The position numbers were made by a program, and so were the translations under genes. The notes beneath the pieces were generated by a model. That model saw only the letters and a program-made list of their open reading frames with translations. It did not search any database and was not told the origin of the DNA. A DNA stretch of 35,952 nt from an uncultured Mycoplasmatota bacterium (GTDB taxonomy: Bacteria; Bacillota_I; Bacilli_A; RF39; UBA660): positions 1 to 35,952 of the forward strand of contig CAMYRF010000002.1 of NCBI GenBank assembly GCA_947296775.1. The letters are read 5' to 3'. Shown piece by piece: positions 23,355 to 35,952 of the stretch. Positions within the stretch are counted from its first letter, which is position 1. Each line of letters begins with the position of its first letter.

Positions 23355-24126
23355 CCCCGTTTCTCAAATCACGTCTTAGCATTGACTGGAATGTCCGGTT
23401 CACTTCTTCTTCTGGTAGTGGATCAGGCGTATTCTCATTACAAATCATCGCTAATTGATAAGCGGCCTTAGCCTCAACACCTCGAAATAGTAGTGCGCCA
23501 ATCATGCCGGCCAAAGTTTTATTTCGCATTCCTTTATCGCCTAAACCATTAGCAATTGTTTCTAATAAATCAGTGGTCGAATTCCGTTCACGAGGCTTAA
23601 TCACAAAATCATTTGGAGTGTTTCGCCGGTTACTCGCCCGCATCTGATTAATATTGACTACTAATGATTTAGGAGCAGTAACGATTGGATTCTTGTTTAA
23701 CCATTCGTAACCCTCTGAAGGAGCGACGACAACATAATTGTTCTGATGAGCCTTAATGTCGACACCTGGTTGATAACCAATTAATTGATTAACTCGCATA
23801 TCTGGCCGTTTCAGATAAAATAATTGACGGCCACTATGCTTGGTGGTTTGGGTTAAAGTTTCTGGAAAATACTTCGCTGGTAATTGCTTAATTGATTCAA
23901 AACCATCAATGTTATTGGCATGATTGCGATCAATATCAACTACGAAGAATTTATCTGTCCTTAAAGCAATCTGAGCATAGGGATGTTTTTTCCATACAGC
24001 TTTGATTTGTTCTGCAGTTAAAGCTGGTTTATCAGCAAATTTAATCAGTGGTTGTTTACCAGCAATGGGGAGGACACTTAATCCTTTAGCTTGATAAGCC
24101 AAAGCGTAATTAACTAAATTTTTCAT
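23335..24126 (-). CDS. Bifunctional DNA primase/polymerase (PrimPol) domain protein
   Basis: Carries LSVLPIAGKQP, VVDIDRNH and VVAPS motifs typical of the PrimPol N-terminal domain. Confidence 0.7.
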   Translation of the reverse strand: MKNLVNYALAYQAKGLSVLPIAGKQPLIKFADKPALTAEQIKAVWKKHPYAQIALRTDKFFVVDIDRNHANNIDGFESIKQLPAKYFPETLTQTTKHSGRQLFYLKRPDMRVNQLIGYQPGVDIKAHQNNYVVVAPSEGYEWLNKNPIVTAPKSLVVNINQMRASNRRNTPNDFVIKPRERNSTTDLLETIANGLGDKGMRNKTLAGMIGALLFRGVEAKAAYQLAMICNENTPDPLPEEEVNRTFQSMLRRDLRNGGEIRGG

Positions 24127-24284
24127 TTTGACCTCCTAAATAAATAACGGGCATTCCACCCGCTCGGTGTTTAGGTCACTGCCTTAAATAGAATCAATAC
24201 CAGTTATGGTAATATTCGTCCCATTCCTCTTCGTCTTGAATTTGTTGCTTTCTTTTTGCTTCTAATGCTTTCCGCAGCCCACCC

Positions 24285-24800
24285 TTAAAAGGGCATCTCA
24301 TAATCTGTAACTTCCGGAGTTTCCGGTTGTTCTGCTTCATCAAAGTCATAATTACGGTATGGATATTGGGGGTTCTTCTTGTTTGGTCGAACCTTCAAAT
24401 CCATAATCATGGTCTTTCCTACTGCCGGTGCAAATGCTTTAGCCAAGTTTTCATAAATTAAAGTATCGTCATCCCAAACTTCATCAGGAATTTCAACACC
24501 TAGAATTGCTGCTAACTTAGAAACCAATCGTAAATTAGTTTCTAGCATTGGATTAGGATTACCCTTAGAAGTTAATTCATCTAATCCAATTTGTAAGAAT
24601 TCTTTTTGGCCGGCTGATTCTCCATCGACAACTTCTAATTCAAAGTTAAGCTGTTCAGCATTCCAAGGGGTTTCATGGTTTTCTACTTTTGCAACTACAA
24701 CAGTATACTTACCGCTTTCCAGTCCCTTAAATTTATTAACCGAATCATTCTTTGGATCAAAACCTTCAGTAGCTTTATTCATTGCATCTCGTAAACTCAT
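24285..24800 (-). CDS. DUF669-like phage protein (possible ssDNA-binding partner of the ATPase)
   Basis: Sits between the AAA_24-like ATPase and PrimPol and has an acidic C-terminus. The family is recalled from memory. Confidence 0.5.
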   Translation of the reverse strand: MSLRDAMNKATEGFDPKNDSVNKFKGLESGKYTVVVAKVENHETPWNAEQLNFELEVVDGESAGQKEFLQIGLDELTSKGNPNPMLETNLRLVSKLAAILGVEIPDEVWDDDTLIYENLAKAFAPAVGKTMIMDLKVRPNKKNPQYPYRNYDFDEAEQPETPEVTDYEMPF

Positions 24801-24806
24801 AATTCA

Positions 24807-25571
24807 TTAACCTTCCTTTACATTTTGCTTTTTAATTTTGTTAACAATTTCATTCTGTTCTTTTGTAGTGGTCTGCTTGGGTTTGTCAAAGACACCATTT
24901 ACATGTTCCAGCACTCGCAAAATTGCCGGATCAGTAATATCATCTTTGACATAATGAATTCGCCGATCTTTAACCATCCGGATATAACGGTCACCATAGC
25001 GCTTAGTTTCAATTACTAAATCACAATTACCATTAACCACGTTGTAATATTTCTGCTTTAGTGATGGTCGGTCTTCAGTGTGGCCAGAAGATTCATCAGT
25101 TAGCATCATTAATCGGCTAATATAAACCGTATTAAGTGGCAAGGCTTTTAGTTCAGTAACAAATGCTTGAAAGACGGTATTAAATTGTGCATATCCCTTG
25201 CCGTAAGGAACATCCCCCAGCGTTTCCACTTCATTGTCATAACAGATAGCTTGTTCAATTAATGTGACAACATCATCAATCACATCAATAACCACTGTTT
25301 TGTAACCATGTTTTTCAGTACCAAGAGCAAGAATAATCTTGTCTAGTTGATCAATCACTGACTCTTTTAAGCTTCCATCGCTCTTTCGGATATTCTTTAA
25401 TTGAATACTTGGTGCGGTGTTCATCTCGCTATTACCATCAGTGTTAAGAAATAGTGGACTTGGAAAACGTTCAGCTAGATATGATTTTCCGGACATTGTA
25501 TCTCCATAGATAAAGTAATTTCTCGGAACTCGCCGTGCTTTCTGTGGTTTATTTGGTGGCAAAATACTCAT
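24807..25571 (-). CDS. AAA_24 / Sak4-like RecA-fold ATPase
   Basis: P-loop motif YGDTMSGKSYLA. The ATG at 25571 lies 10 nt after the helicase stop. Confidence 0.7.
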   Translation of the reverse strand: MSILPPNKPQKARRVPRNYFIYGDTMSGKSYLAERFPSPLFLNTDGNSEMNTAPSIQLKNIRKSDGSLKESVIDQLDKIILALGTEKHGYKTVVIDVIDDVVTLIEQAICYDNEVETLGDVPYGKGYAQFNTVFQAFVTELKALPLNTVYISRLMMLTDESSGHTEDRPSLKQKYYNVVNGNCDLVIETKRYGDRYIRMVKDRRIHYVKDDITDPAILRVLEHVNGVFDKPKQTTTKEQNEIVNKIKKQNVKEG

Positions 25572-25581
25572 AATATCAACC

Positions 25582-26949
25582 TCACTTCTTAATAAATCCA
25601 CGCTGTTTAGCGTAGTGGTAAGCCCAGCCTGATTTGTAACCTTTTAATTTGGCATAGGCTTGTATTTCTTTTAGATTCTTCAATTCGTTTGGACGCTTGC
25701 CAGCAACATTATTCATAATTGCTGACGATTGAATTTTCTTAATAATCGCTAGTCGTGACTTAGTAACTTTTTTAAGTTGAACATTATCAACGACTTCAAT
25801 TTCTTTTTCTTCTCCTAATGTTGCCCCGCAATAAGGACAAATATCACCTGTCCGATAGAACGATGCAAAACATGTCGGACATACTGAGACAGGTTTAAGC
25901 GTTGTCCCCGATTGTTTATTTTTACCATTGCCTTCTAATGTCCATTGCCGTTTATCAGTAGGCAATCCGAATCGCTCAACGTTCCCCACGTGATCGATAA
26001 TTATTGCAGTCTTACCTTCACGTGGATTCATTGAGCGCATTGCAAATTGTAAATATAACGATAGCGATTGGGTCGGTCGTAGCATAATGACACAATCAAC
26101 ATTTGGTAAGTCTAGGCCCTCTGTAAATAATTCTGCATTAGTTACAATTTGAATTTTTCCTTGGCGATAGTCCTCAATGATTTTATTCCGTTCTTCTTTG
26201 GGCGTTTTTCCGGAAACGGCCCTTGCAGTTATCCCATAGCCATTAAATGCATTAGCTAACTTAATTGCACTATCAACGTTATAGGTATAGGCAATTGCTT
26301 GCATTCCCTTAGCAAGCTTCAAATAGTGCTTAACCGCATTCCCGTAGATTTTAGGTTTCATTGCTTCTTTGATTGAATCAGTGTCATATTCACCAGTTCG
26401 TTTTACTTTTAGCTTGGCAGTATCAATGTAAGAAGGAGCGTAATAATCAACTGGTGCTAAAAAGTGATGCTCAATTAACCAAGGAACTGATTTACCAACG
26501 ATTAAATCATCAGCAACATCAGTAAAACCCTGTCCGCCTAACCGATAAGGAGTAGCGGTAAACAATAACTTATAAGCCTTCGGAAAAGTATCAAGAATTC
26601 TGCGATATGATTTAGCCAGAACATGATGGGCCTCATCAACAAAGATTATCGCCGGTAGGTCTAGATTATTAACGTGTCGGGTAATCGTTTGAACCATGCC
26701 GATTTTAGCTAAATCCATATTTACATCATTAGCTTCAAACGTCTTGATAACCTGCTGGACAATTTCTTGCCGATGAACCACGAATAAGATACGGTTGCCC
26801 TTTGCCGTTGCTCGTCTAGCAATTTCAGCCATGATAACTGTCTTCCCCGTTCGTGGCGGTTGTTGAACCATGACGGAACGGTGACCAGCACTTATAGAAT
26901 TCATGATGTTATCAATCGTTTCTTGCTGATAATCACGGAGTTCAAACAT
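25582..26949 (-). CDS. SF2 DEAD/DEAH-box helicase with C-terminal zinc ribbon
   Basis: Carries QQPPRTGKT, FVDEAHH, TATP and CPTC...CPYC motifs. Confidence 0.9.
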   Translation of the reverse strand: MFELRDYQQETIDNIMNSISAGHRSVMVQQPPRTGKTVIMAEIARRATAKGNRILFVVHRQEIVQQVIKTFEANDVNMDLAKIGMVQTITRHVNNLDLPAIIFVDEAHHVLAKSYRRILDTFPKAYKLLFTATPYRLGGQGFTDVADDLIVGKSVPWLIEHHFLAPVDYYAPSYIDTAKLKVKRTGEYDTDSIKEAMKPKIYGNAVKHYLKLAKGMQAIAYTYNVDSAIKLANAFNGYGITARAVSGKTPKEERNKIIEDYRQGKIQIVTNAELFTEGLDLPNVDCVIMLRPTQSLSLYLQFAMRSMNPREGKTAIIIDHVGNVERFGLPTDKRQWTLEGNGKNKQSGTTLKPVSVCPTCFASFYRTGDICPYCGATLGEEKEIEVVDNVQLKKVTKSRLAIIKKIQSSAIMNNVAGKRPNELKNLKEIQAYAKLKGYKSGWAYHYAKQRGFIKK

Positions 26950-27428
26950 TATTTAATCACCGTATTACGGTTAGCTTTTAAGTGTGCTCCTGGTACTTCT
27001 TCTCCAGCTTTGAGTGCTTGGTAAATGGCCTGCTTGTCTGGCTTAGTAGTCGTCTCAGTGATTTTGAACTTATCCGGAAGTTTCTTATCACTATCGATAA
27101 TGGTTGAGGCCTTGAAGTTCCGAGCACTAAGCAAGTGATTTTCAGTAGCTATTTTCTTAATACCGGCATCATCAAGAACATCAGTAATATATTTCTTGAT
27201 CCAAGTAAGTTTATTTTTTCGGTAAGTAATTTCTTCTTCCCATGACTTCTTTTTGTCAGTCATAAAATCAATTTCTGACTTCAATTGATCCGCCCATGAG
27301 GCAAGATTGTCCAACTTGGTATTCCGATCATCCTTAATTGATTCCAATGTATCCTTTAGAATAGTTGGATCTAAGTCATCCCGGCTAGCAAGTGTTTTAT
27401 AATTGTCGTTTAATTCAAATAAATTCAT
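26949..27428 (-). CDS. Sipho_Gp157-like protein
   Basis: 159 aa, coiled-coil, placed upstream of the helicase as in Sfi11-type replication modules. Recalled from memory. Confidence 0.6.
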   Translation of the reverse strand: MNLFELNDNYKTLASRDDLDPTILKDTLESIKDDRNTKLDNLASWADQLKSEIDFMTDKKKSWEEEITYRKNKLTWIKKYITDVLDDAGIKKIATENHLLSARNFKASTIIDSDKKLPDKFKITETTTKPDKQAIYQALKAGEEVPGAHLKANRNTVIK

Positions 27429-27700
27429 TAGTCTTTACCTCCTAAAAGAATCGGTGCCAAAATGTCTGCTATTGGATCACTAGTTAAATGTGGGATCCCA
27501 AACTTAACCAATGATGTTGCCTGTGGGAAATTCTCAAGAGCAGTTAACATCATACCGGCCATTGCGCCCTGATCCGCGTCATTTAAGACAAGCACCCGTT
27601 CAACGTTTGAGTTCTTCGCGTTAGCAGCTAGGACTACTACATTTTCATAGTCAGGGCCTAAAATCTTCTTAATCTGTTGTTTCTTCTCTTCATTAGTCAT
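27428..27700 (-). CDS. Hypothetical early protein (90 aa)
   Basis: The ATG at 27700 follows the SD ggaggtaaag. Confidence 0.55.
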   Translation of the reverse strand: MTNEEKKQQIKKILGPDYENVVVLAANAKNSNVERVLVLNDADQGAMAGMMLTALENFPQATSLVKFGIPHLTSDPIADILAPILLGGKD

Positions 27701-27881
27701 TATCTTTACCTCCATAAATTCTATTTAGAAATTCCTCAAACGTTTTTTTGAATAATTCTGGATGATAGGTTAAGCTAGCAACGATCATCTTTGTCAAAAT
27801 ATCAATATCTCCAGAGATCCTGCCATCAAATTTATTTGGATCGTTTGAATTGGTTACAAGGTTGATTTCAGCTTTCTTCAT
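27693..27881 (-). CDS. Hypothetical early protein (62 aa)
   Basis: The ATG at 27881 follows the SD ggaggtgg. Confidence 0.5.
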   Translation of the reverse strand: MKKAEINLVTNSNDPNKFDGRISGDIDILTKMIVASLTYHPELFKKTFEEFLNRIYGGKDND

Positions 27882-28089
27882 TGCTTCCACCTCCGTAAAC
27901 ATTCTTAGTTTCAGTAGCCAGACGTTCTGCTGCAATTCTTAACATAGTTGCCGCATTCTCCATTTTGATGGCCATTGCCATTCGTTCTTCGGGAGTAGCA
28001 GCACTTTGATAGCGAACTGCCAAATTCGATACAAATACACAATTATCGCCAACCCTGGCATTTAATTTTGATAAATTAAACTCATTCAT
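27868..28089 (-). CDS. Hypothetical early protein (73 aa)
   Basis: The ATG at 28089 follows the SD gaggtaa. Confidence 0.55.
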   Translation of the reverse strand: MNEFNLSKLNARVGDNCVFVSNLAVRYQSAATPEERMAMAIKMENAATMLRIAAERLATETKNVYGGGSNEES

Positions 28090-28096
28090 ATATAAT
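28068..28096 (+). promoter_or_regulatory. Near-consensus sigma-70-type promoter on the plus strand (TTGATA-17-TATAAT)
   Basis: The -35 is at 28068-28073, the spacer is 17 nt by count and the -10 is at 28091-28096. Confidence 0.55.
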
Positions 28097-28102
28097 TACC
28101 TC

Positions 28103-28153
28103 GTAAAGTATTTATTTATCGGTACGACTGTTTGCGGCGGTCGTACCTTTTTT
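28103..28153 (+). ncRNA. Predicted ~50-nt antisense RNA
   Basis: The promoter above is followed by the hairpin GGTACGAC (28121-28128) / GTCGTACC (28140-28147) and then TTTTTTATTT. There are no plus-strand genes nearby. Confidence 0.5.
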
Positions 28154-28279
28154 ATTTAGTGGATCAAGAACCACTAGCAGAAGATAAAATGCTAGGATCG
28201 TCATCGCTCCATCATAAGAGCCAATCATTGAACAATACATGATCCAAGCACCAACGATTAGCGCAATTAACTTACTCAT
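28112..28279 (-). CDS. 55-aa double-TM peptide with polar C-terminal tail
   Basis: The ATG at 28279 follows the SD aaggagg. The sequence is MSKLIALIVGAWIMYCSMIGSYDGAMTILAFYLLLVVLDPLNKKGTTAANSRTDK. Confidence 0.55.
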   Translation of the reverse strand: MSKLIALIVGAWIMYCSMIGSYDGAMTILAFYLLLVVLDPLNKKGTTAANSRTDK

Positions 28280-28293
28280 CCCCTCGCCTCCTT

Positions 28294-28422
28294 TCAATGT
28301 TTCTTCCGATACTTCTCTTTCAGTAGCAATGGTTTATTCCGCTCATACAATAAGCTGTACACCAATGCATATAACAAACACATTGCAATAATTAATATTG
28401 GTAATCCGATTAACAACGCCAC
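28294..28422 (-). CDS. 42-aa single-TM peptide with basic tail
   Basis: The GTG at 28422 lies 4 nt after the SD aggaggtgg. The sequence is VALLIGLPILIIAMCLLYALVYSLLYERNKPLLLKEKYRKKH. It is below the track cutoff. Confidence 0.45.
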   Translation of the reverse strand: MALLIGLPILIIAMCLLYALVYSLLYERNKPLLLKEKYRKKH

Positions 28423-28433
28423 TTAACCACCTC

Positions 28434-28760
28434 CTAACGTGGCAAGGATTGGTTCCAATCAATATCTGCTTGATGAGACACAATCCAGGGTAATGCTTTG
28501 GTTACATTGACTCTGGCCGGTCGTCCTTGGCCAGCGTTTAAGTTAATTACCCACGGCTTGAAGACTGGTAACGGCAGGAGAAACATTCGGACCCATTCCT
28601 TATCCTTTATAACGGGCAACTGACTCGTAAATTCCTTGATGCCGACCCATTTATCAGCTTGAACATCTTGCTTAGGTACTAAGTTGTAACATTCCTTAAT
28701 GCGCCTAAGAACCTCATCGGTAATTACCTGGTAATCTTGTTCATCTAGTGATGCTTGCAC
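28434..28760 (-). CDS. Early protein, DUF771-like (excisionase-like DNA-binding protein?)
   Basis: A GTG start lies 5 nt after the SD gagaggtgat. It is the second gene of the rightward-to-leftward early operon. The family is recalled weakly. Confidence 0.45.
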   Translation of the reverse strand: MQASLDEQDYQVITDEVLRRIKECYNLVPKQDVQADKWVGIKEFTSQLPVIKDKEWVRMFLLPLPVFKPWVINLNAGQGRPARVNVTKALPWIVSHQADIDWNQSLPR

Positions 28761-28785
28761 TCCATATCACCTCTCTTAGCCTTTT

Positions 28786-28800
28786 GTTCCAATACGGAAC
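28786..28800. promoter_or_regulatory. Operator-like palindrome GTTCCAATACGGAAC
   Basis: Has the same GTTCC-N5-GGAAC architecture as the site at 29012. It lies between the cro-like stop and the next SD. Confidence 0.5.
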
Positions 28801-28995
28801 TTACGAGGCAAAAAAAATAGTGTCAATATTAAGATCAAATAATTTACTAATAGCAAACATTTCATCTTGAGTAAATTGATTTTTACCATTTTCCTTATCA
28901 CGATAAGCTTTGACACTAATATTTAGATAATCAGCCATTTGTTGTTGAGTCATTCCTTTAACATGTTTTCGTAAATCATATAATCTTGACTGCAT
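28801..28995 (-). CDS. Cro-like XRE-family HTH protein (64 aa)
   Basis: HTH motif MTQQQMADYLNISVKAYRDKENG. The ATG at 28995 follows the SD ggaaaggagag. The track's TTG at 29028 lies inside the operator. Confidence 0.8.
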   Translation of the reverse strand: MQSRLYDLRKHVKGMTQQQMADYLNISVKAYRDKENGKNQFTQDEMFAISKLFDLNIDTIFFAS

Positions 28996-29011
28996 ATTAT
29001 CTCTCCTTTCC

Positions 29012-29026
29012 GTTCCAAATTGGAAC
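29012..29026. promoter_or_regulatory. Operator palindrome GTTCCAAATTGGAAC
   Basis: Perfect 7+1+7 inverted repeat between the -10 of the leftward promoter and the cro-like SD. Confidence 0.65.
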
Positions 29027-29032
29027 AATTAT

Positions 29033-29061
29033 ATATTAAAACCATTCTGGAACAAATGCAA
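29033..29061 (-). promoter_or_regulatory. Early leftward promoter (TTGCAT-17-TAATAT)
   Basis: Read on the minus strand, the -35 is at 29061-29056 and the -10 at 29038-29033. The half-conserved operator GTTCCAGAATGGTTT (29053-29039) fills the spacer. Confidence 0.55.
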
Positions 29062-29088
29062 CTATTTTTTCCGAAAAAGATAAAAAAT

Positions 29089-29118
29089 ATTCCATTTCGG
29101 TAACACAAGTTATATAAT
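29089..29118 (+). promoter_or_regulatory. Candidate repressor-gene promoter (TTCCAT-17-TATAAT) overlapped by a degenerate operator ATTCCATTTCGGTAAC
   Basis: The -10 TATAAT is at 29113-29118. The -35 is weak, which would be expected for an autoregulated maintenance promoter. Confidence 0.4.
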
Positions 29119-29143
29119 TAGTTACATAAGAGAGGTACATAAA

Positions 29144-29785
29144 ATGGAACTAAGTAAATTCATTGGTCAAAAAATCAGAAATTTTCGTGAACAACGTGGC
29201 CTTTCAGTAGAACAACTTGCAGACAAACTTGATACAACAAGAGCAACTGTGACTAGATATGAGTTAGGATCTAGAAAGGCAAATCAAGATGTTTTATTTA
29301 AATTAGCTGAAATTTTTAATGTAAATGTTGATGACTTTTTCCCTACAAGAGAAAAGAAACCTTCTAATATTATTTATCCTAAAGAAGGATTAGAAGTTGT
29401 TTCAATTCCAATCATTGGTGAAATTGCTTGTGGCGATCCGATTACTGCTGAAGAAAATATCGAAGGTTATACTGATGAAATCTTTGAAAAACCAGTTCCT
29501 AGTGGAACACTTTTTGGTCTTCGTTGTAAAGGTGATAGCATGGAGCCTACCATTCCTAATGGCGCATTAGCCATTATTAGAGAGCAACCTGAAGTTGAAG
29601 ATGGTGAGATAGCTGCAGTTCTTGTTGACGATGATAACGAAGCTACTTTAAAACGTATTAAGCATCAAGGTAATTTAGTTATGCTAATGCCAGATAATAA
29701 AAACTATGATCCAATAATTCTTGATGAAGAGCATCCAGGTCGAATTGTTGGTAAATTAGTTAAATATTCAGTGACAATGGAATAA
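29144..29785 (+). CDS. CI/LexA-type repressor: XRE HTH + S24 autopeptidase
   Basis: HTH motif LSVEQLADKLDTTRATVTRYELG. The S24 catalytic motifs are GDSMEP (Ser) and ATLKRI (Lys). Confidence 0.9.
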   Translation: MELSKFIGQKIRNFREQRGLSVEQLADKLDTTRATVTRYELGSRKANQDVLFKLAEIFNVNVDDFFPTREKKPSNIIYPKEGLEVVSIPIIGEIACGDPITAEENIEGYTDEIFEKPVPSGTLFGLRCKGDSMEPTIPNGALAIIREQPEVEDGEIAAVLVDDDNEATLKRIKHQGNLVMLMPDNKNYDPIILDEEHPGRIVGKLVKYSVTME

Positions 29786-29795
29786 GGTGATCCAA

Positions 29796-30674
29796 ATGAG
29801 TAAAAAGAGATGCTTCATATGTAATGATGCCTTAGGAATGTTAAAGGCTTCTTGCATTACCAAAGATGGATATTTAATTTGTGGCAAAGATGCCAACAGA
29901 CTTGATCCCAAACGTCCAGCAAATACTTACCGTGTTCCAATTAAACTTAGCAATTTCATTAGTTCCCATACCGCTAGTGAAATTGAAAGTTTATTAGGGA
30001 TTTCTTCTATCGTACCTTACAAAGAACATCCTGATTTGTATAAGTCAAAGCTATCTAAAGTAACTGAAAAACTTGATTCGATTGCTGATAGCGCTGGTAA
30101 AAAAGCTGATACTTTACAAGCAGCAATTGACGAAATCAACAAAGACGAACAAGAAAAATCGGATGTCATTAAGCAACAGTTAAAGGATGCCAATGTAGAA
30201 AATCTATTTGGTACTAAAAAGGAAATTAAAGCTTTACCAGACATAATAGATATTGATGGTGGAGAAAAAATACTTTATGCAGCTAATGCTTTTATTGAAA
30301 CTCATTCTATCCTTGCAGTATGTACCAATAAGCGTGTAATTTTTCTTGATCACGGTCTAATTTATGGCAGTAAATCAACCGATATTCCCCTTGATATGAT
30401 TAATGGTGTTTCATATTCTAACGGGTTAATGTTAGGATCCATTTCAGTAACTAACGGGGCTATTACAACTCAAATAGAAAACATGCAACCCTACCCTGCT
30501 AAAAAAATGGCCGAGATTATTAAACAGGCAGCTGCAGACTTTAAGCAGACATCAGTACAATCCAATTCTAGTAATGACCTTTCGCAATTAAGAGAATTAA
30601 AGCAACTACTTGATGATGGAGTTATTACTGAAGAAGAATTTACCGCTAAAAAGAAACAAATTTTGGAAATATAA
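29796..30674 (+). CDS. Lysogeny-module cargo protein: N-terminal Cys4 zinc-ribbon-like motif, coiled coil, bacterial PH-like domain, C-terminal SHOCT
   Basis: The ATG lies 4 nt after the SD aaggtgat and 11 nt after the repressor stop. Recognised segments are CFICNDALGMLKASCITKDGYLICG, EKILYAANAF...NKRVIFLDHG...INGVSYSNG and LRELKQLLDDGVITEEEFTAKKKQIL. Confidence 0.65.
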   Translation: MSKKRCFICNDALGMLKASCITKDGYLICGKDANRLDPKRPANTYRVPIKLSNFISSHTASEIESLLGISSIVPYKEHPDLYKSKLSKVTEKLDSIADSAGKKADTLQAAIDEINKDEQEKSDVIKQQLKDANVENLFGTKKEIKALPDIIDIDGGEKILYAANAFIETHSILAVCTNKRVIFLDHGLIYGSKSTDIPLDMINGVSYSNGLMLGSISVTNGAITTQIENMQPYPAKKMAEIIKQAAADFKQTSVQSNSSNDLSQLRELKQLLDDGVITEEEFTAKKKQILEI

Positions 30675-30685
30675 GGAGTTAAAGA

Positions 30686-31120
30686 ATGAAGAAACTTTTA
30701 AAAACACTTTTTCTTATCTTAGGAACTGTAATGATTTCAATAACACTCCTTATAGGTAATATTCATAGCAGTTCAACTAGCTATCCAAATATAACAACTA
30801 AATTTAACGTTGATAAAATGTCTAGTTATAACGAAGATGATTTATTTGCTAGTGTAACTTTAAAAAAGTTCTATGTTATTGGGGTAACAACTGACAATGT
30901 TAATCAATATCGCTTAGTGCTGACACCCAAGCCAAATAGTAATCAATACTTTTACATGACAACCAGTAAACATAAAAAGATTAGTGTAGGTCAGAAAATT
31001 ACGGTAAAAGGGCAACTCAATGGTCGATTAACTATTCCTGATGACAAATATAATAGACACCTTCAGTCTAATGTATTAAATAAGAATGCAACTATGGTCC
31101 TTGTCAAATCTTATAAATAA
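30686..31120 (+). CDS. Lysogeny-module cargo protein: N-terminal membrane anchor + extracytoplasmic OB-like domain; superinfection-exclusion candidate
   Basis: The ATG lies 7 nt after the SD ggag and 11 nt after the upstream stop. The TM helix is LFLILGTVMISITLLIG, with no lipobox Cys. VGQKITVKGQLNGR is reminiscent of tRNA_anti-like OB proteins. Confidence 0.6.
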   Translation: MKKLLKTLFLILGTVMISITLLIGNIHSSSTSYPNITTKFNVDKMSSYNEDDLFASVTLKKFYVIGVTTDNVNQYRLVLTPKPNSNQYFYMTTSKHKKISVGQKITVKGQLNGRLTIPDDKYNRHLQSNVLNKNATMVLVKSYK

Positions 31121-31160
31121 TCTTTTGTCCAACTACTTGATGACGTAAAAAGCTAGTAAA

Positions 31161-31239
31161 TAAAAAAGCCCACCGACAGCTGCAACTGTCAGTGGACCAA
31201 GGGTTGATATTAATTGCGTCCAAACAAATTTTATCAACC
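31161..31239 (-). ncRNA. Predicted ~78-nt two-hairpin RNA antisense to the region just upstream of int
   Basis: The minus-strand promoter TTGTCC-18-TATAAT has its -10 at 31250-31245. Stem-loop 1 is GGGTTGATA/TATCAACCC (31240-31232 / 31209-31201, perfect 9 bp). The terminator stem pairs 31195-31186 with 31179-31170 (10 bp, one G-U pair) and is followed by UUUUUUAUUU. Confidence 0.5.
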
Positions 31240-31244
31240 CTTTC

Positions 31245-31274
31245 ATTATACACAATTTAATAATGGAGGGACAA
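31245..31274 (-). promoter_or_regulatory. Minus-strand promoter overlapping the int SD region
   Basis: The -35 TTGTCC is the reverse complement of 31269-31274. The spacer is 18 nt and the -10 is a perfect TATAAT. Confidence 0.45.
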
Positions 31275-31276
31275 GT

Positions 31277-32401
31277 ATGCCAATAAGTATTAAAAAAGTT
31301 TACGGTAGTTGGCAAGCAAGAGTTCGCTGGACTGACACTAATGGCAAAAGACACTCGAAGTCAAAAAATGGTTTCAAGACCAAGGCTCTCGCTCGTCAGT
31401 GGGGTAATGACCTTGAAACTAAAGTCAATCAAGGTATTGATATAAAAAAAGAGATTAGCTTCTTAAATTATTACAATCAATGGGTGATAACATATAAAGA
31501 GCCAAAGTTAAGTTCAAAAACTCTTAATCGATATACCGTTGTTGGTAATATATTGCAAAAACACTTTAAGCAAACAAACATCAAAAATATTACCAGAACT
31601 ATGTACCAAGAATTTATTAATAGTTATGGTAGTAATCATGCGATTTCAAGTGTAAAAAAATTAAATTCTATCATTAGAAGCTGTGTTAAATCTGCAATTT
31701 TGGACGATTACCTAACTAAGGACTTTACTCAAAGAGTGACATTAACTGCCGATAAGTCTAAAACTTTAGAAGTGCAATATCCAAATGTCAATGAAATAAA
31801 GAAGATACTTAATCAAACTATTAATGGAATGACTGACAGAAGGTACACCAGTCGATACATGATCATTACTGCTATTTATACTGGTATGCGTAAGGAGGAA
31901 ATTCAAGCATTGACCTGGAATGATATCGATTTCTTGCACGATACCATCAAAATAGATAAAGCATGGCGAGAAACCAAAGACAAAGGTGAAAGCAACAGTC
32001 ACTTTATAACTCACCGTTTTAAACCAACCAAAAATAAAGCCTCAATTCGGCAGATTAAGGTTAATCATAAGTTGATCAGAATATTAAGCAGATTAAAGAT
32101 CAATGCAACAAGTAATCTAGTATTTATGGACCAGTTTGGAACTATTCCTACAAGTGGTCCACTAAATGACAAACTGCGCGAAATAATGGCAGAGCTTAAC
32201 ATAAAAAAAGAAAATTTTCATTTTCACAGCTTACGACATAGTCACGTTGCACTTTTGCTTGCAAATGGTATTGACACTTATGCAATTAGTCGAAGATTAG
32301 GACATAATGACATCACAACAACGATTAATACTTATGCTTACCTTATTGATGAATATAAAAATAAGTCAGATAAAGATATCCTCAAAGCACTAGATTTTTA
32401 A
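31277..32401 (+). CDS. int: Tyrosine integrase
   Basis: The ATG follows the SD ggaggg. The C-terminal catalytic pattern is HSLRHSHVALLL...LGHNDITTTINTYAYL. The track start at 31214 has no SD. Confidence 0.9.
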   Translation: MPISIKKVYGSWQARVRWTDTNGKRHSKSKNGFKTKALARQWGNDLETKVNQGIDIKKEISFLNYYNQWVITYKEPKLSSKTLNRYTVVGNILQKHFKQTNIKNITRTMYQEFINSYGSNHAISSVKKLNSIIRSCVKSAILDDYLTKDFTQRVTLTADKSKTLEVQYPNVNEIKKILNQTINGMTDRRYTSRYMIITAIYTGMRKEEIQALTWNDIDFLHDTIKIDKAWRETKDKGESNSHFITHRFKPTKNKASIRQIKVNHKLIRILSRLKINATSNLVFMDQFGTIPTSGPLNDKLREIMAELNIKKENFHFHSLRHSHVALLLANGIDTYAISRRLGHNDITTTINTYAYLIDEYKNKSDKDILKALDF

Positions 32402-32409
32402 CTAAAGCC

Positions 32410-32429
32410 CGTGACCAATTCGTGACCAA
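32410..32429 (+). repeat. Two tandem CGTGACCAA repeats (candidate Int arm-type sites, P arm)
   Basis: CGTGACCAA occurs at 32410-32418 and 32421-32429. Confidence 0.5.
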
Positions 32430-32490
32430 AGTTCACAAATTTGCACCATTTTATACCATTTCTTCAAAAGCAAAATTTAAACTAAAAAAT

Positions 32491-32522
32491 AGGAGAAAGC
32501 CTGCAATAACAATCTTTCTCCT
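32491..32522. terminator. Bidirectional intrinsic terminator after int
   Basis: AGGAGAAAG/CTTTCTCCT is a 9-bp stem with a 14-nt loop. An A-run lies upstream and a T-rich tract downstream. Confidence 0.7.
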
Positions 32523-32626
32523 ATTTCATTAACTTAGCTGACAATTTTGTACCAAAGTACTAATATGCCTCCGGTGAGTATTTCTTACCCTCTTATATCA
32601 ACGATTACAAGGAAACCGTGACCAAT

Positions 32627-32644
32627 CCATGACCTTTTTCTACT
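32627..32644 (+). repeat. CGTGACCAA plus a degenerate CATGACC copy (candidate arm-type sites, P' arm)
   Basis: A perfect 9-mer lies at 32627-32635 and CATGACC at 32638-32644. Confidence 0.45.
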
Positions 32645-32652
32645 ATTATATA

Positions 32653-32695
32653 TAAACAAAAAAGATGACCATTACATTCAATGCAACAGTCATCT
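32653..32695 (-). terminator. Intrinsic terminator after the lysis cassette
   Basis: AGATGAC/GTCATCT stem (32663-32669 / 32689-32695), followed on the minus strand by UUUUUUGUUU. Confidence 0.6.
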
Positions 32696-32733
32696 ATATG
32701 TTAATTACAAGAGAATTTTACCTCTTTTTTTAT

Positions 32734-33645
32734 TTATTCAAATTTTCCAAAAGGTTGGTTAGTCTTAGCATCACGAACTGCCATGTAGCCATAGCCATTT
32801 TCTCGTGGTTGACGAATCCAAACATAGCCAGCGTGACGACTAAAGGCATCATACTCAATAGTAGATCCTGCTGGTAGAGTGGCAATAATATTAGATGTTG
32901 TTCGGGCACCATAGCGCAAATTAACCCCTACATCTAGGGTAAACTTGCCCTCTTCTTTAAACCAAGTATCACCCAATTCATCAACAAACGATAACTCTTT
33001 TTCATCTTTGTGTTCTTCTGCTGGTTGAACAGGAGATGGTTCTAGAATGGAAATATTGTTATTAGGGTTAGCCATCTTTAGCCAACCTTCTTTAGTTGTA
33101 TTAACCATGTTTCGGTCCATATCTGAACCAGTAAATTGATGGACAGTAAAGACTTCCCAAGGTGCAATATTGAATCCAGCTCCCTGATAATTCCAGTCAA
33201 GAGATTGAGAATACTTGTAGTAAGCAACCCATAACGGACAATCATTTACACAATTTGCAACCTGTTGAATTTCAGACTGAGATACATAAACCATGCACCA
33301 TACGCCTGTTAACTCATGAACACGGTTAACAAATTGACGTACATAACCGTAATTACCCCAACTAGCATTCTGATACCCTTCCCAATCAACCGCTAAGACT
33401 GCTTCACCTACATAGTTTTTAATATTATTGATGAAGTAATCAGCTTCGGCAATTGGATTACCACCAGCACAATAGTGGTATAAGCCTAGTAACTTTCCTG
33501 CTGCTTTTGCATTAGCATAATCAATATTACATGCTGGATTAACATACCCAGTTCCTTGCGTGGCTTTAACCATTGTAATATCAGTTTCTGGCAATGTCGC
33601 AAAGCTACGAGGACTTCCAGAGAATACATCGACCATTTTTAACAT
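32734..33645 (-). CDS. Endolysin: GH25-like muramidase + C-terminal SH3b cell-wall binding domain
   Basis: The N-terminal region has VKATQGTGYVNP...LGLYHY...LAVDWE. The C-terminal region has LRYGARTTSNIIATLPAGSTIEYDAF...GYVWIRQ. The ATG overlaps the holin stop. Confidence 0.85.
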   Translation of the reverse strand: MLKMVDVFSGSPRSFATLPETDITMVKATQGTGYVNPACNIDYANAKAAGKLLGLYHYCAGGNPIAEADYFINNIKNYVGEAVLAVDWEGYQNASWGNYGYVRQFVNRVHELTGVWCMVYVSQSEIQQVANCVNDCPLWVAYYKYSQSLDWNYQGAGFNIAPWEVFTVHQFTGSDMDRNMVNTTKEGWLKMANPNNNISILEPSPVQPAEEHKDEKELSFVDELGDTWFKEEGKFTLDVGVNLRYGARTTSNIIATLPAGSTIEYDAFSRHAGYVWIRQPRENGYGYMAVRDAKTNQPFGKFE

Positions 33646-34079
33646 TACTTTTTACCTCCTTTATATTTACCAAGAAAGTTGTACTTAGATGGATCATAAT
33701 CTTCTTGATCTTTTGCTAACTTTGCTTCAAAGAAATCCATGATTGGTTTAGGCAACCACCACCCCATCTCTGTCCAATTTTCAACAATTGAAATCAAATA
33801 TTGATAAATCCAAGCAATTAAAAAAGTGGTAGCCATTGTGCTTGCTCCGATCGTATAAAGATACGGATAAGCGATTACTACCACTAAATAAATTATTGTA
33901 TGTTTGATTAGGCCTGGAATCCCAACAGAGCTATTAGTTTTTCGTACCGTTTTCTTTGCGTAATATGGTTTTACCATACCGGTAATTAAATCCACAATCA
34001 TAACAATGGTAAATGCCCACATCAACTTATCATCAATTAGCGCTTGCATTTGATGAAGCATAAATAAATGGTATGGCAC
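33645..34079 (-). CDS. Holin
   Basis: A 144-aa protein with three hydrophobic helices and a charged C-terminus, directly upstream of the endolysin. It has a GTG start after the SD gagggga. Confidence 0.75.
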   Translation of the reverse strand: MPYHLFMLHQMQALIDDKLMWAFTIVMIVDLITGMVKPYYAKKTVRKTNSSVGIPGLIKHTIIYLVVVIAYPYLYTIGASTMATTFLIAWIYQYLISIVENWTEMGWWLPKPIMDFFEAKLAKDQEDYDPSKYNFLGKYKGGKK

Positions 34080-34096
34080 AACTATCCCCTCACTTC

Positions 34097-34357
34097 TTAT
34101 GCTTTGTCAGCTGTTGTTTCTTCGATTTCACTGAACGCTTCATCTTCTTGACTGCGGATATATGTTCGAAATTCATCAGAGTCCGCTCGTACCTGTTTTA
34201 AGTTTTTGCGGTAAAGTTCTTGATTATAAATGTAAGTATTAGTTGTAGTTTGTGCATTCAAATCTGTTGCAATTTGAGCATTAAAACGCGCAACCTCAGT
34301 TCCATTAATTGTTGAGTGTCCTACCAATGTGATGTTCTTTTCTTTGGTTAAAGCCAT
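34097..34357 (-). CDS. Hypothetical protein (86 aa) between tail and lysis genes
   Basis: ORF with an ATG start 2 nt after the upstream stop. Confidence 0.55.
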   Translation of the reverse strand: MALTKEKNITLVGHSTINGTEVARFNAQIATDLNAQTTTNTYIYNQELYRKNLKQVRADSDEFRTYIRSQEDEAFSEIEETTADKA

Positions 34358-34359
34358 AA

Positions 34360-34530
34360 TTATTTACCGCCTTTCTTATTCTTTAAGGATTCATTTTCTT
34401 GTTTTAATTGCTGATTTTGTTGTTGAAGCGTTTCAACCTGTGCTTCTAGAATCGAATTGTTATATTCTTGCAAAGCCAATTTATTAAGTAATTTCTGTGC
34501 TACTTGATTCATATCTGTATTATTGTTCAT
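34360..34530 (-). CDS. 56-aa coiled-coil protein (MNNNTDMNQVAQKLLNKLALQEYNNSILEAQVETLQQQNQQLKQENESLKNKKGGK)
   Basis: The ATG at 34530 lies 9 nt after the SD ggagg and overlaps the Tal 3' end by 11 nt. It is below the track cutoff. Confidence 0.5.
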   Translation of the reverse strand: MNNNTDMNQVAQKLLNKLALQEYNNSILEAQVETLQQQNQQLKQENESLKNKKGGK

Positions 34531-35952
34531 TTAATTTTTCCTCCAATTCTTGAACTTTCTTTTTTAATTTTCTAATTACAGGGATAAGCGCTGGAGCTAT
34601 TCGTTCATATTGAATACCTTCTATTTCGTGAGTTTGTGGGTTACGGCTGACGAAGAGATCTAAGCCTGCATCCGCTAGGTCTTCGGCAATCATTCCAAAG
34701 TATTTATTCGGTTTGATGTGCCGTTTACCTTCCTGATAACGTTCTTTTTGTCCCTTATCAATCCAGGTTGCTGTCGGTAACTCTAATAAACGATCACCGA
34801 AATTAGTTGAATAATCACGATGAATTTCAGTCTTGTACTTTGATGCAGAAGTAGAACGAACTAATGCACCATCAGAAGCAACGACAAGGTTTGGAGCACC
34901 ACCAGTAGTATGCCGCCAAGCTGTCGGAACATGAAGATATTCTCCGTCAATTACAATTCGATTTCCCCACCAATTATTATTGGGTCCATCTACGCCCACA
35001 GAAATAAACGGAGAACCGGTTACAAAAACCCCTCCATCGTTAGGGTCCATAACGTTTTGCTTTATGCTCATTTGGTTACCACCTTTAATGAACACACCTC
35101 GTTCTGCACCGCCTAAGATTGTCGGCATCCAATTGTTAGTTCCTTTTCCTGTAAATAAACCAGAAAAAGTAGCCGTCCCCATTGGACTAGATGTAAAACC
35201 TGTTGTTCCTTGTGCATTGGCTTCATTAGCAACAATCACACTATCACGACCAATTAAACTAGCTCCGGCCCAAGCATCACCAGCACCACCACCATTAAAA
35301 AGGCGGAAGTACCAATTACCATTAGTGTCAAAAAGATTAGGCTGAGTTAATTGAAGTTCCCCATCTTTTAATAATGCTCGTGTGGTGTAATTAGCAGTAG
35401 AAATATAGTTTTGATCAAGGTTAATATCCACTGTATTACTAAAATTATGAATACGACCGTGCTGGAACTCAACATTTCCAGTATTCAAATCAATTTTCAA
35501 ATTTTGTCCGTTAATTGTCCCAGTCGTAATATTATTTGCATTCAGATTAACAACATTAATTCGACCAGCATCTAGTGTCCCAGCAGTAATCTTGTCAGCC
35601 GAAATATTGGTTATGGCCGCATCAGGAATAAATGCTTTACCAGAGAAGATAGTTGATGAAGAATCCATGTAGATTTTATCGTTTTGGATTAATGTTGTGC
35701 CGGCTGACATGTTGATTTGAGCGAGAGTATCGTTTTTTCTGACATTAACATTAGTGAACCACCAATTACCAAAATTAGCGGTAGCTTCGATTTGTACCCA
35801 AATTCGAGCTTTTACTACAGTGTTAGGAATAGTAATCGAACCATATTTAGTTTTGAAGCCCTCATTCGGACTAAAAGAGACAGCTGATTGCCAATTCCAT
35901 GTTCCATCTTTCTTTTCATATACAAATCCAAGATTAAAACTATTAGAAGACT
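34520..35952 (-). CDS. C-terminal part of the same Tal/receptor-binding ORF: CBM-like module end, glycine-rich fibre region, peptidase S74-type intramolecular chaperone
   Basis: The frame is open upstream of the track's Met at 35710 through to the window end. The last 109 aa (SASKYKTEIHRDYS...GIQYERIAPALIPVIRKL..., 34520-34849) match the tail-fibre C-terminal autoproteolytic chaperone pattern, recalled from memory. Confidence 0.8.
   Translation of the reverse strand, partial: SSNSFNLGFVYEKKDGTWNWQSAVSFSPNEGFKTKYGSITIPNTVVKARIWVQIEATANFGNWWFTNVNVRKNDTLAQINMSAGTTLIQNDKIYMDSSSTIFSGKAFIPDAAITNISADKITAGTLDAGRINVVNLNANNITTGTINGQNLKIDLNTGNVEFQHGRIHNFSNTVDINLDQNYISTANYTTRALLKDGELQLTQPNLFDTNGNWYFRLFNGGGAGDAWAGASLIGRDSVIVANEANAQGTTGFTSSPMGTATFSGLFTGKGTNNWMPTILGGAERGVFIKGGNQMSIKQNVMDPNDGGVFVTGSPFISVGVDGPNNNWWGNRIVIDGEYLHVPTAWRHTTGGAPNLVVASDGALVRSTSASKYKTEIHRDYSTNFGDRLLELPTATWIDKGQKERYQEGKRHIKPNKYFGMIAEDLADAGLDLFVSRNPQTHEIEGIQYERIAPALIPVIRKLKKKVQELEEKLNEQ
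35898..35952. repeat. Terminal overlap copy 2, identical to 1-55
   Basis: Same 55-mer as positions 1-55. It lies inside coding sequence of the tail gene. Confidence 0.95.

Follow-up and report, generated by a model that had tools for sequence, protein, structure and literature searches.

Antisense control of the OOP type is textbook knowledge for the lambdoid phages. The architecture of the tO-oop-pO unit of phage lambda relative to cII has been described, and the last 17 residues of CII were found to be dispensable for activity but needed for regulation (PMC3349717). In the Firmicutes, duplexes formed by RNAs that overlap at their 3' ends are cleaved by RNase III (PMC6562991). Prophage-encoded antisense RNAs against lytic or exclusion genes include sar and sas of phage P22 and STnc6030 of Salmonella phage BTP1, the last of which acts on incoming phage (PMC7067206). 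No description of OOP-type antisense control in phages of the Lactobacillaceae was found in the literature. Here, we describe an element of this kind in a stretch of DNA of 35,952 nucleotides (nt) (contig CAMYRF010000002.1, hereafter the window), a temperate phage or prophage from the Limosilactobacillus reuteri group. The element is located on the plus strand, opposite the 3' end of an open reading frame (ORF) for a hydrophobic peptide of 55 amino acids (aa). It is probably a self-terminating, constitutively promoted cis-antisense small RNA gene, resembling lambda oop, in the early lytic operon of the phage.

Results and Discussion

Probable Antisense Transcription Unit in the Window

The plus strand carries a −35 hexamer, TTGATA (28068–28073), and, after a spacer of 17 nt, a −10 hexamer, TATAAT (28091–28096). 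On sequence, this pair conforms to a promoter of the SigA/sigma-70 type, which is defined by hexamers that are 16–18 nt apart or by an extended TGn −10 element. With a score of 11/12, it is the top promoter-like match in positions 24000–35952. The promoter is interleaved with the initiation region of a 73-aa early gene on the minus strand (27868–28102), for which the Shine–Dalgarno (SD) sequence is at 28099–28102 and the ATG is at 28087–28089. The −10 hexamer lies within the SD–ATG spacer of this gene, and the strand opposite the −35 hexamer contains the codons for L6 and S7.

A terminator hairpin, GGTACGAC/GTCGTACC (28121–28128/28140–28147), is found on the plus strand 24 nt past the −10 hexamer. 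The hairpin at 28121–28147 has a stem of 12 base pairs (8 Watson–Crick pairs, then three U·G pairs and one G–C pair) and a loop of 3 nt. It is abutted by the U-tract TTTTTTATTT (28148–28157), which encodes the KK codons of the peptide on the minus strand. A G+C-rich stem-loop with a U-run right after it is the signature of an intrinsic (Rho-independent) terminator. The folding energy of the hairpin is −16.6 kcal/mol on the antisense strand vs −10.6 kcal/mol on the sense strand.

With a transcription start site that we infer to be approximately 7 nt past the −10 hexamer, the predicted antisense RNA would be ~51 nt in length (~28103–28153, plus strand); it would begin with a single-stranded, A/U-rich leader of 18 nt, continue into the terminator hairpin, and finish in a U tail. 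The fold of positions 28103–28156 (54 nt) has an energy of −18 kcal/mol (z = −3.8), and none of 200 shuffled sequences was equally stable. When the window was simulated 200 times with a first-order Markov model, a promoter of at least 11/12 with a terminator 10–60 nt further on was obtained at a rate of 0.01 per window; the antisense unit is beyond chance.

The predicted RNA covers the final 14 codons of the ORF for the 55-aa peptide, with the stop codon included (28112–28153), and the hairpin encodes 9 of these codons. Complementarity in cis is perfect across 42 nt of the ORF and 9 nt of the adjoining spacer, and pairing of the 5' end of the RNA would stop 1 nt short of the SD of the 73-aa gene. 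The preliminary description of this locus had called a TTGATA-17-TATAAT promoter at 28068–28096, back-to-back with the start of the next gene, an 8-bp hairpin with a U-run at 28121–28147, and an RNA complementary to the last ~14 codons of the 55-aa ORF. All of these features were recovered, and the stem was found to extend to 12 pairs through the U·G pairs. The same description had placed the unit opposite two tiny ORFs; the RNA overlaps the 55-aa ORF only, and the 42-aa ORF upstream of it is outside the overlap.

A scan against Rfam at E ≤ 10 gave sub-threshold noise only, with no family reaching E < 1 at the site. The earlier statement that no such element was known for the early regions of Lactobacillaceae phages agrees with this result and with the literature searched.

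Strand-Specific Conservation of the Terminator

For comparison, we collected 75 distinct junctions from Limosilactobacillus prophages, where a junction extends from the 3' end of the peptide ORF to the next gene. The sources were IMG/VR, GTDB genomes, metagenomes, contigs of divergent family members, and phage LR1. These relatives were reached by protein-guided searches and by exact-pattern scans for two hairpin types; DNA searches with the region and with an 18-kb stretch vs 50,697 GenBank phage records gave no match. The relatives originate from genomes of L. caviae, L. agrestis, L. rudii, L. pontis, and L. reuteri and from gut metagenomes. The junctions were drawn from recombining phages of a single genus, and the counts given below are not counts of independent events. 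The cassette is a conserved module that reaches from the KK codons of the peptide through the start codon of the following gene, and it sits exactly at a mosaic boundary.

The hairpin is present in 74 of the 75 junctions, right after the A-run of the sense strand. We found 31 distinct hairpin sequences of several types, which include GGTACGAC...GTCGTACC, GGACACGAC...GTCGTGTCC, GCCAYCGG...CCGRTGGC, GCGTTGGTGT...ACACCAGCGC, and others. On the antisense strand, a T-run of at least 5 (range 5–8) abuts the hairpin without a gap in 73 of the 74 junctions. Of the two strands, the antisense strand gives the more stable fold in 73 of the 74. For the unique hairpins, the mean difference between the two folds was 6.3 kcal/mol in favor of the antisense strand (Wilcoxon p = 1e-4).

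The base pairs covary. In the 15 sequences of the type-3 hairpins, each of the 150 cells forms a pair on the antisense strand; 3 pairs are altered on both sides. The covariation score of this set is 0.33, compared with 0.12 in shuffled sets, and this score was not reached by any of 500 shuffles. The type-3 hairpins also contain 19 cells with G·U or U·G pairs on the antisense strand that are A–C or C–A mismatches on the sense strand; the reverse was found in 0 cells. For types 1 and 2 (8 sequences), pairing on the antisense strand extends to 97.9% of the cells, with three conserved U·G pairs. The strand asymmetry of the wobble pairs and of the folds argues against a DNA cruciform or an RNA element of the sense strand.

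A rearranged hairpin was observed in one relative (L045/L106), where an inner segment of 11 nt is inverted between identical stem arms. The G·U-extended stem is now on the sense strand, and the tail of the peptide becomes GTTVCGGRT. This change looks like an inversion across the inverted repeat.

A Promoter That Travels with the Cassette

The antisense −10 hexamer was compared with 301 other SD-preceded gene starts from the same loci. An antisense −10 of at least 5/6 was found in the SD–ATG spacer of the following gene for 44 of 45 junctions vs 34 of the 301 control gene starts (11%), with a Fisher p value of 5e-33. When all junctions are considered, 73 of 74 have a −10 that scores 5/6 or better, 50 of them with an extended TG, and a perfect TATAAT is found in 48 of the 74 vs 1 of the 301 controls. 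The forms of this element are TATAAT, TGnTATAAT, TGnTATACT, TGnTAGAAT, and TGnTAAAAT. The distance from the −10 hexamer to the hairpin clusters at 23–25, 32–38, and 42–46 nt, and the predicted RNAs of the relatives range from 50 to 73 nt in length (median 60).

The gene after the cassette has at least a dozen unrelated N-termini, and by this comparison the promoter goes with the cassette and not with the downstream gene. In all relatives of the promoter type found in the window, TTGATA is invariant while neighboring synonymous sites vary. In one relative (L097), the 73-aa gene is absent, yet TTGATA-17-TATAAT and the hairpin remain in a noncoding spacer. The possibility that the −10 hexamer is an ordinary A/T-rich ribosome-binding spacer was rejected on the basis of the 301-gene control and L097.

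These data also bear on a different role for the hairpin, namely that it acts on the sense strand, in mRNA processing or stability or as an attenuator, or that it is a DNA palindrome or recombination linker next to which the antisense promoter is coincidental. We consider this to be very unlikely. The location of the cassette exactly at the mosaic boundary would be compatible with it, as would the flipped loop of L045, for which the sense fold is the better one, and the A/T-rich character of SD–ATG spacers in general, given the 11% of controls with an antisense −10 of 5/6. A function of the sense-strand hairpin was nevertheless rejected, since wobble pairs occur only on the antisense strand (19 vs 0 in type 3 and the three conserved U·G pairs of types 1 and 2) and the T-run is found on the antisense side only. 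A coincidental promoter is contradicted by the frequency of the perfect TATAAT in junctions relative to controls and by the retention of the promoter in the noncoding DNA of L097.

The covariation, the strand-specific G·U pairs, the abutting T-run, and the −10 hexamer that travels with the cassette together make a strong case for a self-contained antisense transcription unit. At the level of sequence, the promoter, the terminator, the strand on which both are read, and the conservation of the cassette are established. Covariation and conservation in related genomes had been named as a check in the preliminary description, and both the promoter and the hairpin are kept in related junctions with compensatory changes.

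The Overlapped Peptide and Type I Toxin–Antitoxin Systems

The 55-aa peptide (family A, phrog_19314) is encoded on the minus strand at 28112–28279, with an ATG start codon and an AGGAGG SD; the ORF listing extends the start to a TTG at 28297. Its sole profile match is to phrog_19314, the function of which is unassigned in PHROG. Family A includes 344 clusters at 90% identity, all of which are labeled hypothetical, and every named member is from Limosilactobacillus. The grand average of hydropathy of the peptide is 0.68, and in its length (less than ~60 aa) and hydrophobicity, it corresponds to the membrane peptides of type I toxin–antitoxin (TA) systems. The AlphaFold2 model contains two helices (residues 2–19 and 22–38) and a disordered tail of low confidence (residues 43–55).

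The tail is always composed of KK and approximately 9 residues that are dictated by the hairpin. In L048, which has a frameshift, and in L045, which has the flipped loop, the residues of the tail are fully changed and the hairpin is kept; selection therefore acts on the RNA and not on the tail. The stop codon follows the hairpin, with the ORF reading through it, in 73 of the 74 junctions. The same KK-hairpin tail and antisense cassette are found in approximately 15 junctions with a different peptide, family B (MNEPALICTGLTAAM..., MNEPALICTGLTAAMLISLFYGSGLCLVFGFVLFWQILGALGDPDNPNKK...). The family B loci, all from IMG/VR, are L111, L114, L123–L134, L138, L142, and L144. Homology between families A and B was not supported; hhalign aligned only the hairpin-coded tail, and the hydrophobic bodies have no detectable similarity. 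Among exact hairpin matches in IMG/VR, 46 of 48 coincide with the 3' end of an ORF for a small hydrophobic peptide.

Within the early operon, a gap of 14 nt separates the 42-aa ORF from the 55-aa ORF downstream of it. The 42-aa peptide (28294–28422, minus strand; GTG start, GGAGGTGG SD) has one hydrophobic segment and a basic tail, KYRKKH. It is conserved, and in approximately half of the upstream contexts a homologue with this ending immediately precedes the peptide of family A or B. In shape, this single-helix peptide is closer to a classical type I toxin than is the 55-aa peptide, and there is no antisense unit over it. In L034 (2443–2940) and L043 (2723–2938), a reverse-oriented, moron-like gene is inserted between the genes for the 42-aa and 55-aa peptides; it encodes a 165-aa protein with multiple transmembrane (TM) segments in one of these loci and a 71-aa protein in the other. 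In L082 (1468–2260), the gene for a 194-aa HNH-type endonuclease is inserted exactly in the A-run, between the body of the peptide and the hairpin, and the HNH ORF ends with a hairpin-coded tail (…GAGNTDGKIQ). The hairpin of L082 is degenerate, with a U–U mismatch and a U-run that is displaced by 4 nt, which suggests that the terminator may decay once it is uncoupled from the peptide.

The association with a small hydrophobic peptide raises the possibility of a type I TA module, in which the 55-aa peptide (and that of family B) would be a membrane toxin and the short RNA would be its labile antitoxin, needed for lysogen viability, prophage maintenance, or abortive infection as with txpA/RatA and bsrG/SR4. 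Several observations are in keeping with this proposal. The cassette is tied to a small hydrophobic ORF whatever gene follows it, two unrelated hydrophobic bodies have the same cassette, and the ORF reads through the hairpin in nearly every junction. As in the B. subtilis systems (txpA/RatA, bsrG/SR4, bsrE/SR5, and yonT/SR6), a small hydrophobic peptide gene resides on a prophage, a convergent antisense RNA is predicted to be complementary to the 3' end of its mRNA, and the duplex would be expected to be a substrate for RNase III.

The B. subtilis toxins, however, have their own promoters and monocistronic mRNAs, whereas the peptide gene described here lies within the early lytic operon as an internal cistron. 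No sense promoter of at least 9/12 was found within ~100 nt upstream of the peptide gene in the window or in most relatives, and accordingly neither a promoter of its own nor a stable independent mRNA is indicated there. With the reverse-oriented insert of L034 and L043, the 55-aa gene would need read-through or its own promoter; such a promoter may be present in these relatives, and to that extent they favor a TA module. The antitoxins of B. subtilis are 100–220 nt in length, compared with 50–73 nt for the RNAs considered here. The family A peptide has two helices and not the usual single TM helix. Neither it nor the family B peptide matched any Pfam, NCBIfam, or PADLOC family at E ≤ 1, and this includes the known type I toxin families represented in Pfam and NCBIfam (Fst/Ldr, TxpA/BsrG, Hok, and others). 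For the 42-aa peptide, no NCBIfam or PADLOC match was obtained at E ≤ 1, and the only match in Pfam (E ≤ 0.1) was BTP with E = 0.022, which is below the cutoff. The resemblance to type I TA systems drawn in the preliminary description thus extends to the hydrophobic peptide and the 3' overlap, and it fails with regard to the promoter, the toxin families, and the number of peptides overlapped. We do not claim membership in this class, and a TA function is possible but doubtful.

Comparison with Lambda oop

The locus corresponds more fully to lambda oop. In both cases, a short self-terminated RNA is directed against an early operon, its promoter coincides with the beginning of the next gene or lies in an intergenic spacer, and its terminator is within the last codons of the upstream ORF; in the window, this is seen as a predicted RNA at 28103–28153 that extends over the final 14 codons of the ORF for the 55-aa peptide. 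Both units have the immunity region on one side and the replication/recombination module on the other. The dispensable tail of CII has a counterpart in the tail of the 55-aa peptide, which is disordered in the model and is frameshifted or flipped in relatives. As in lambda, a mosaic boundary is located inside the promoter, and therefore the −10 hexamer is conserved while the −35 hexamer varies with the downstream gene. An OOP-like arrangement had been suggested in the preliminary description, and it agrees in each point with what has been published on lambda oop.

There are also differences. No sequence or Rfam similarity to oop was found, and the host in this case is a Firmicute. The overlapped ORF encodes a transcription activator in lambda and a 55-aa hydrophobic peptide here, and the −10 hexamer here is within an SD–ATG spacer. 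By this comparison, the architecture is a close match to that of lambda oop, and the element is an analogue of oop and not a homologue. The RNAs of P22 (sar/sas) and BTP1 (STnc6030) differ in position and size, with STnc6030 being 786 nt in length and opposite structural genes; they have no peptide-linked cassette and no homology with the RNA described here.

Genomic Setting of the Early Operon

All ORFs of at least 90 aa in positions 4187–29028 are on the minus strand except for a plus-strand ORF at 5565–5948, which is nested within a 1077-aa minus-strand ORF. The preliminary description had correctly noted a block of genes on one strand, but the length of the block is ~25 kb (4187–29028) and not 9 kb. 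A Cro-like helix-turn-helix (HTH) gene (28801–29028, minus strand) faces the gene for a CI-like repressor of the HTH and S24 type (29144–29785, plus strand). On the minus strand, the cro-like gene is followed by the 108-aa gene, the genes for the 42-aa and 55-aa peptides, the 73-aa gene, and further small ORFs, beyond which are a Gp157/Gam-like protein and a helicase.

Two GTTCC-N5-GGAAC palindromes, GTTCCAAATTGGAAC (29012–29026) and GTTCCAATACGGAAC (28786–28800), are probable CI/Cro operators. One is within the cI–cro intergenic region, and the second is just 3' of cro, ahead of the 108-aa gene. No such operator-like sequence was found near 28060–28110, at the antisense promoter, and the promoter is therefore probably not controlled by the repressor and would be active in lysogens.

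The transcription of cI in phage lambda from P_RE passes through an antisense region before it enters cI. The antisense promoter and the CI-like gene are on the same strand, ~1 kb apart, with weak terminator-like sites between them, and from this geometry one could propose that the promoter is a terminator-gated equivalent of P_RE. Read-through transcripts would then be antisense to both peptide genes as well as the 108-aa gene and cro, would continue in the sense direction into cI (29144–29785), and would aid the establishment or maintenance of lysogeny. The precedent of lambda and the geometry are the only points in its favor. Immediately after the promoter is a strong terminator (U5–U8; isolated hairpin, −16.6 to −21 kcal/mol) that is present in 73 of 74 junctions, which argues that termination is the selected outcome, and no antiterminator was identified. 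This proposal is barely credible.

A second unit composed of a promoter and a terminator was noticed on the minus strand at 31160–31274. Its promoter is TTGTCC-18-TATAAT (31274 to 31245, 10/12), and the RNA of ~80 nt would contain two hairpins (−38 kcal/mol, z = −7.2) and a U-run; there is no T-run for the hairpin on the plus strand. This unit sits between a 144-aa gene and the start of the integrase gene (ATG at 31277), and it is directed away from int. A segment of ~110 nt from this unit is nearly identical in five other prophages that have different integrase N-termini. On these features, it is a candidate small RNA of the lysogeny module.

Possible Action in Trans

A promoter that is probably active in lysogens would also be suited to an RNA that acts in trans. 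In such a case, the RNA of a prophage would act on incoming or coresident phages with the same type of cassette and would provide cross-immunity or superinfection exclusion in the manner of STnc6030, for which there is a published precedent (PMC7067206). Cassette types are common to many otherwise different phages, with several discrete types of hairpin and leader, and prophages with different cassette types occur together in single genomes (for example, contigs _000005, _000006, and _000008 of IMG genome 2684623011). Against this, an RNA of ~50 nt that is directed at one junction of the early transcript may not block an infection, and no further target was found in the window, where a search for trans targets gave only A/T-rich 10–12-mers of the kind expected by chance. 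We regard this proposal as improbable. A broader version, in which the cassette is a portable "antisense plug" that silences any small membrane peptide fused to it and possibly also serves as a type-specific determinant of RNA immunity in trans, is unlikely as well, if slightly less so. If it were true, the early transcripts of phages with the same hairpin and leader type would be knocked down, and the cassette types would approximate immunity groups.

Proposed Function of the Antisense RNA

The function that we favor is that of an OOP-like damper of early expression, which would act first on the peptide and have polar effects downstream. The 18-nt A/U-rich single-stranded leader would be the likely site of first contact. 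Base pairing between the RNA and the polycistronic early mRNA would be perfect and would cover the final 14 codons of the peptide as well as the spacer, ending 1 nt short of the next SD. The resulting duplex of 45–60 bp could be cut by RNase III, block the access of ribosomes, or both. Duplexes of this kind serve as substrates of RNase III in lambda (OOP/cII) as well as in the 3'-overlapping systems of the Firmicutes. A cut within the ORF would leave a nonstop message for the peptide, and the same cut would expose the downstream replication and recombination cistrons to 5'–3' decay. The duplex could also hinder binding of the 30S subunit at the adjacent SD. Overall, leakage of early expression in lysogens would be damped, and the membrane peptide would be kept in check in the course of an infection.

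Several points weigh against the assignment of an oop-like antisense RNA gene. The transcription start site, the 3' end, and the abundance of the RNA are all inferred from DNA sequence. Most types other than that of the window have a weak −35 hexamer (3–4/6) and rely on an extended −10 element, and one relative (L019/L044/L110) has only the weak −10 hexamer CATACT. In L045, which is the sole exception to the strand preference of the hairpin, the flipped loop segment allows the sense strand to fold better. The A-run of the sense strand could also be explained by the Lys-Lys codons. All of the relatives are mosaic, recombining phages of one genus, and the conservation is in part a matter of shared ancestry. 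The regulated target, moreover, may be the peptide, the downstream genes, or both.

Conclusions

We have described what is, on present evidence, a previously unannotated example of the phage cis-antisense RNA class. The module is widespread in Limosilactobacillus prophages, as judged from the 344 clusters of the peptide. It is also present (6284–6499) in phage LR1 of L. reuteri ATCC PTA 6475 (GenBank MH837542.1). In LR1, the family A peptide has 67 residues (6284–6487), the hairpin is at 6434–6460, and the complement of the hexamer of the antisense extended −10 element, TGGTATAAT, is at 6494–6499. All three features are absent from the annotation of the record, and the next annotated coding sequence starts at 6502.

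The combination of strand-specific G·U pairs with a −10 element that travels with its cassette provides an example of how an antisense gene can be recognized from sequence alone. L. reuteri ATCC PTA 6475 is a genetically tractable probiotic in which the induction of prophages affects fitness in the gut. The presence of LR1 in this strain makes the module experimentally accessible, and the module could be a lever on spontaneous induction.

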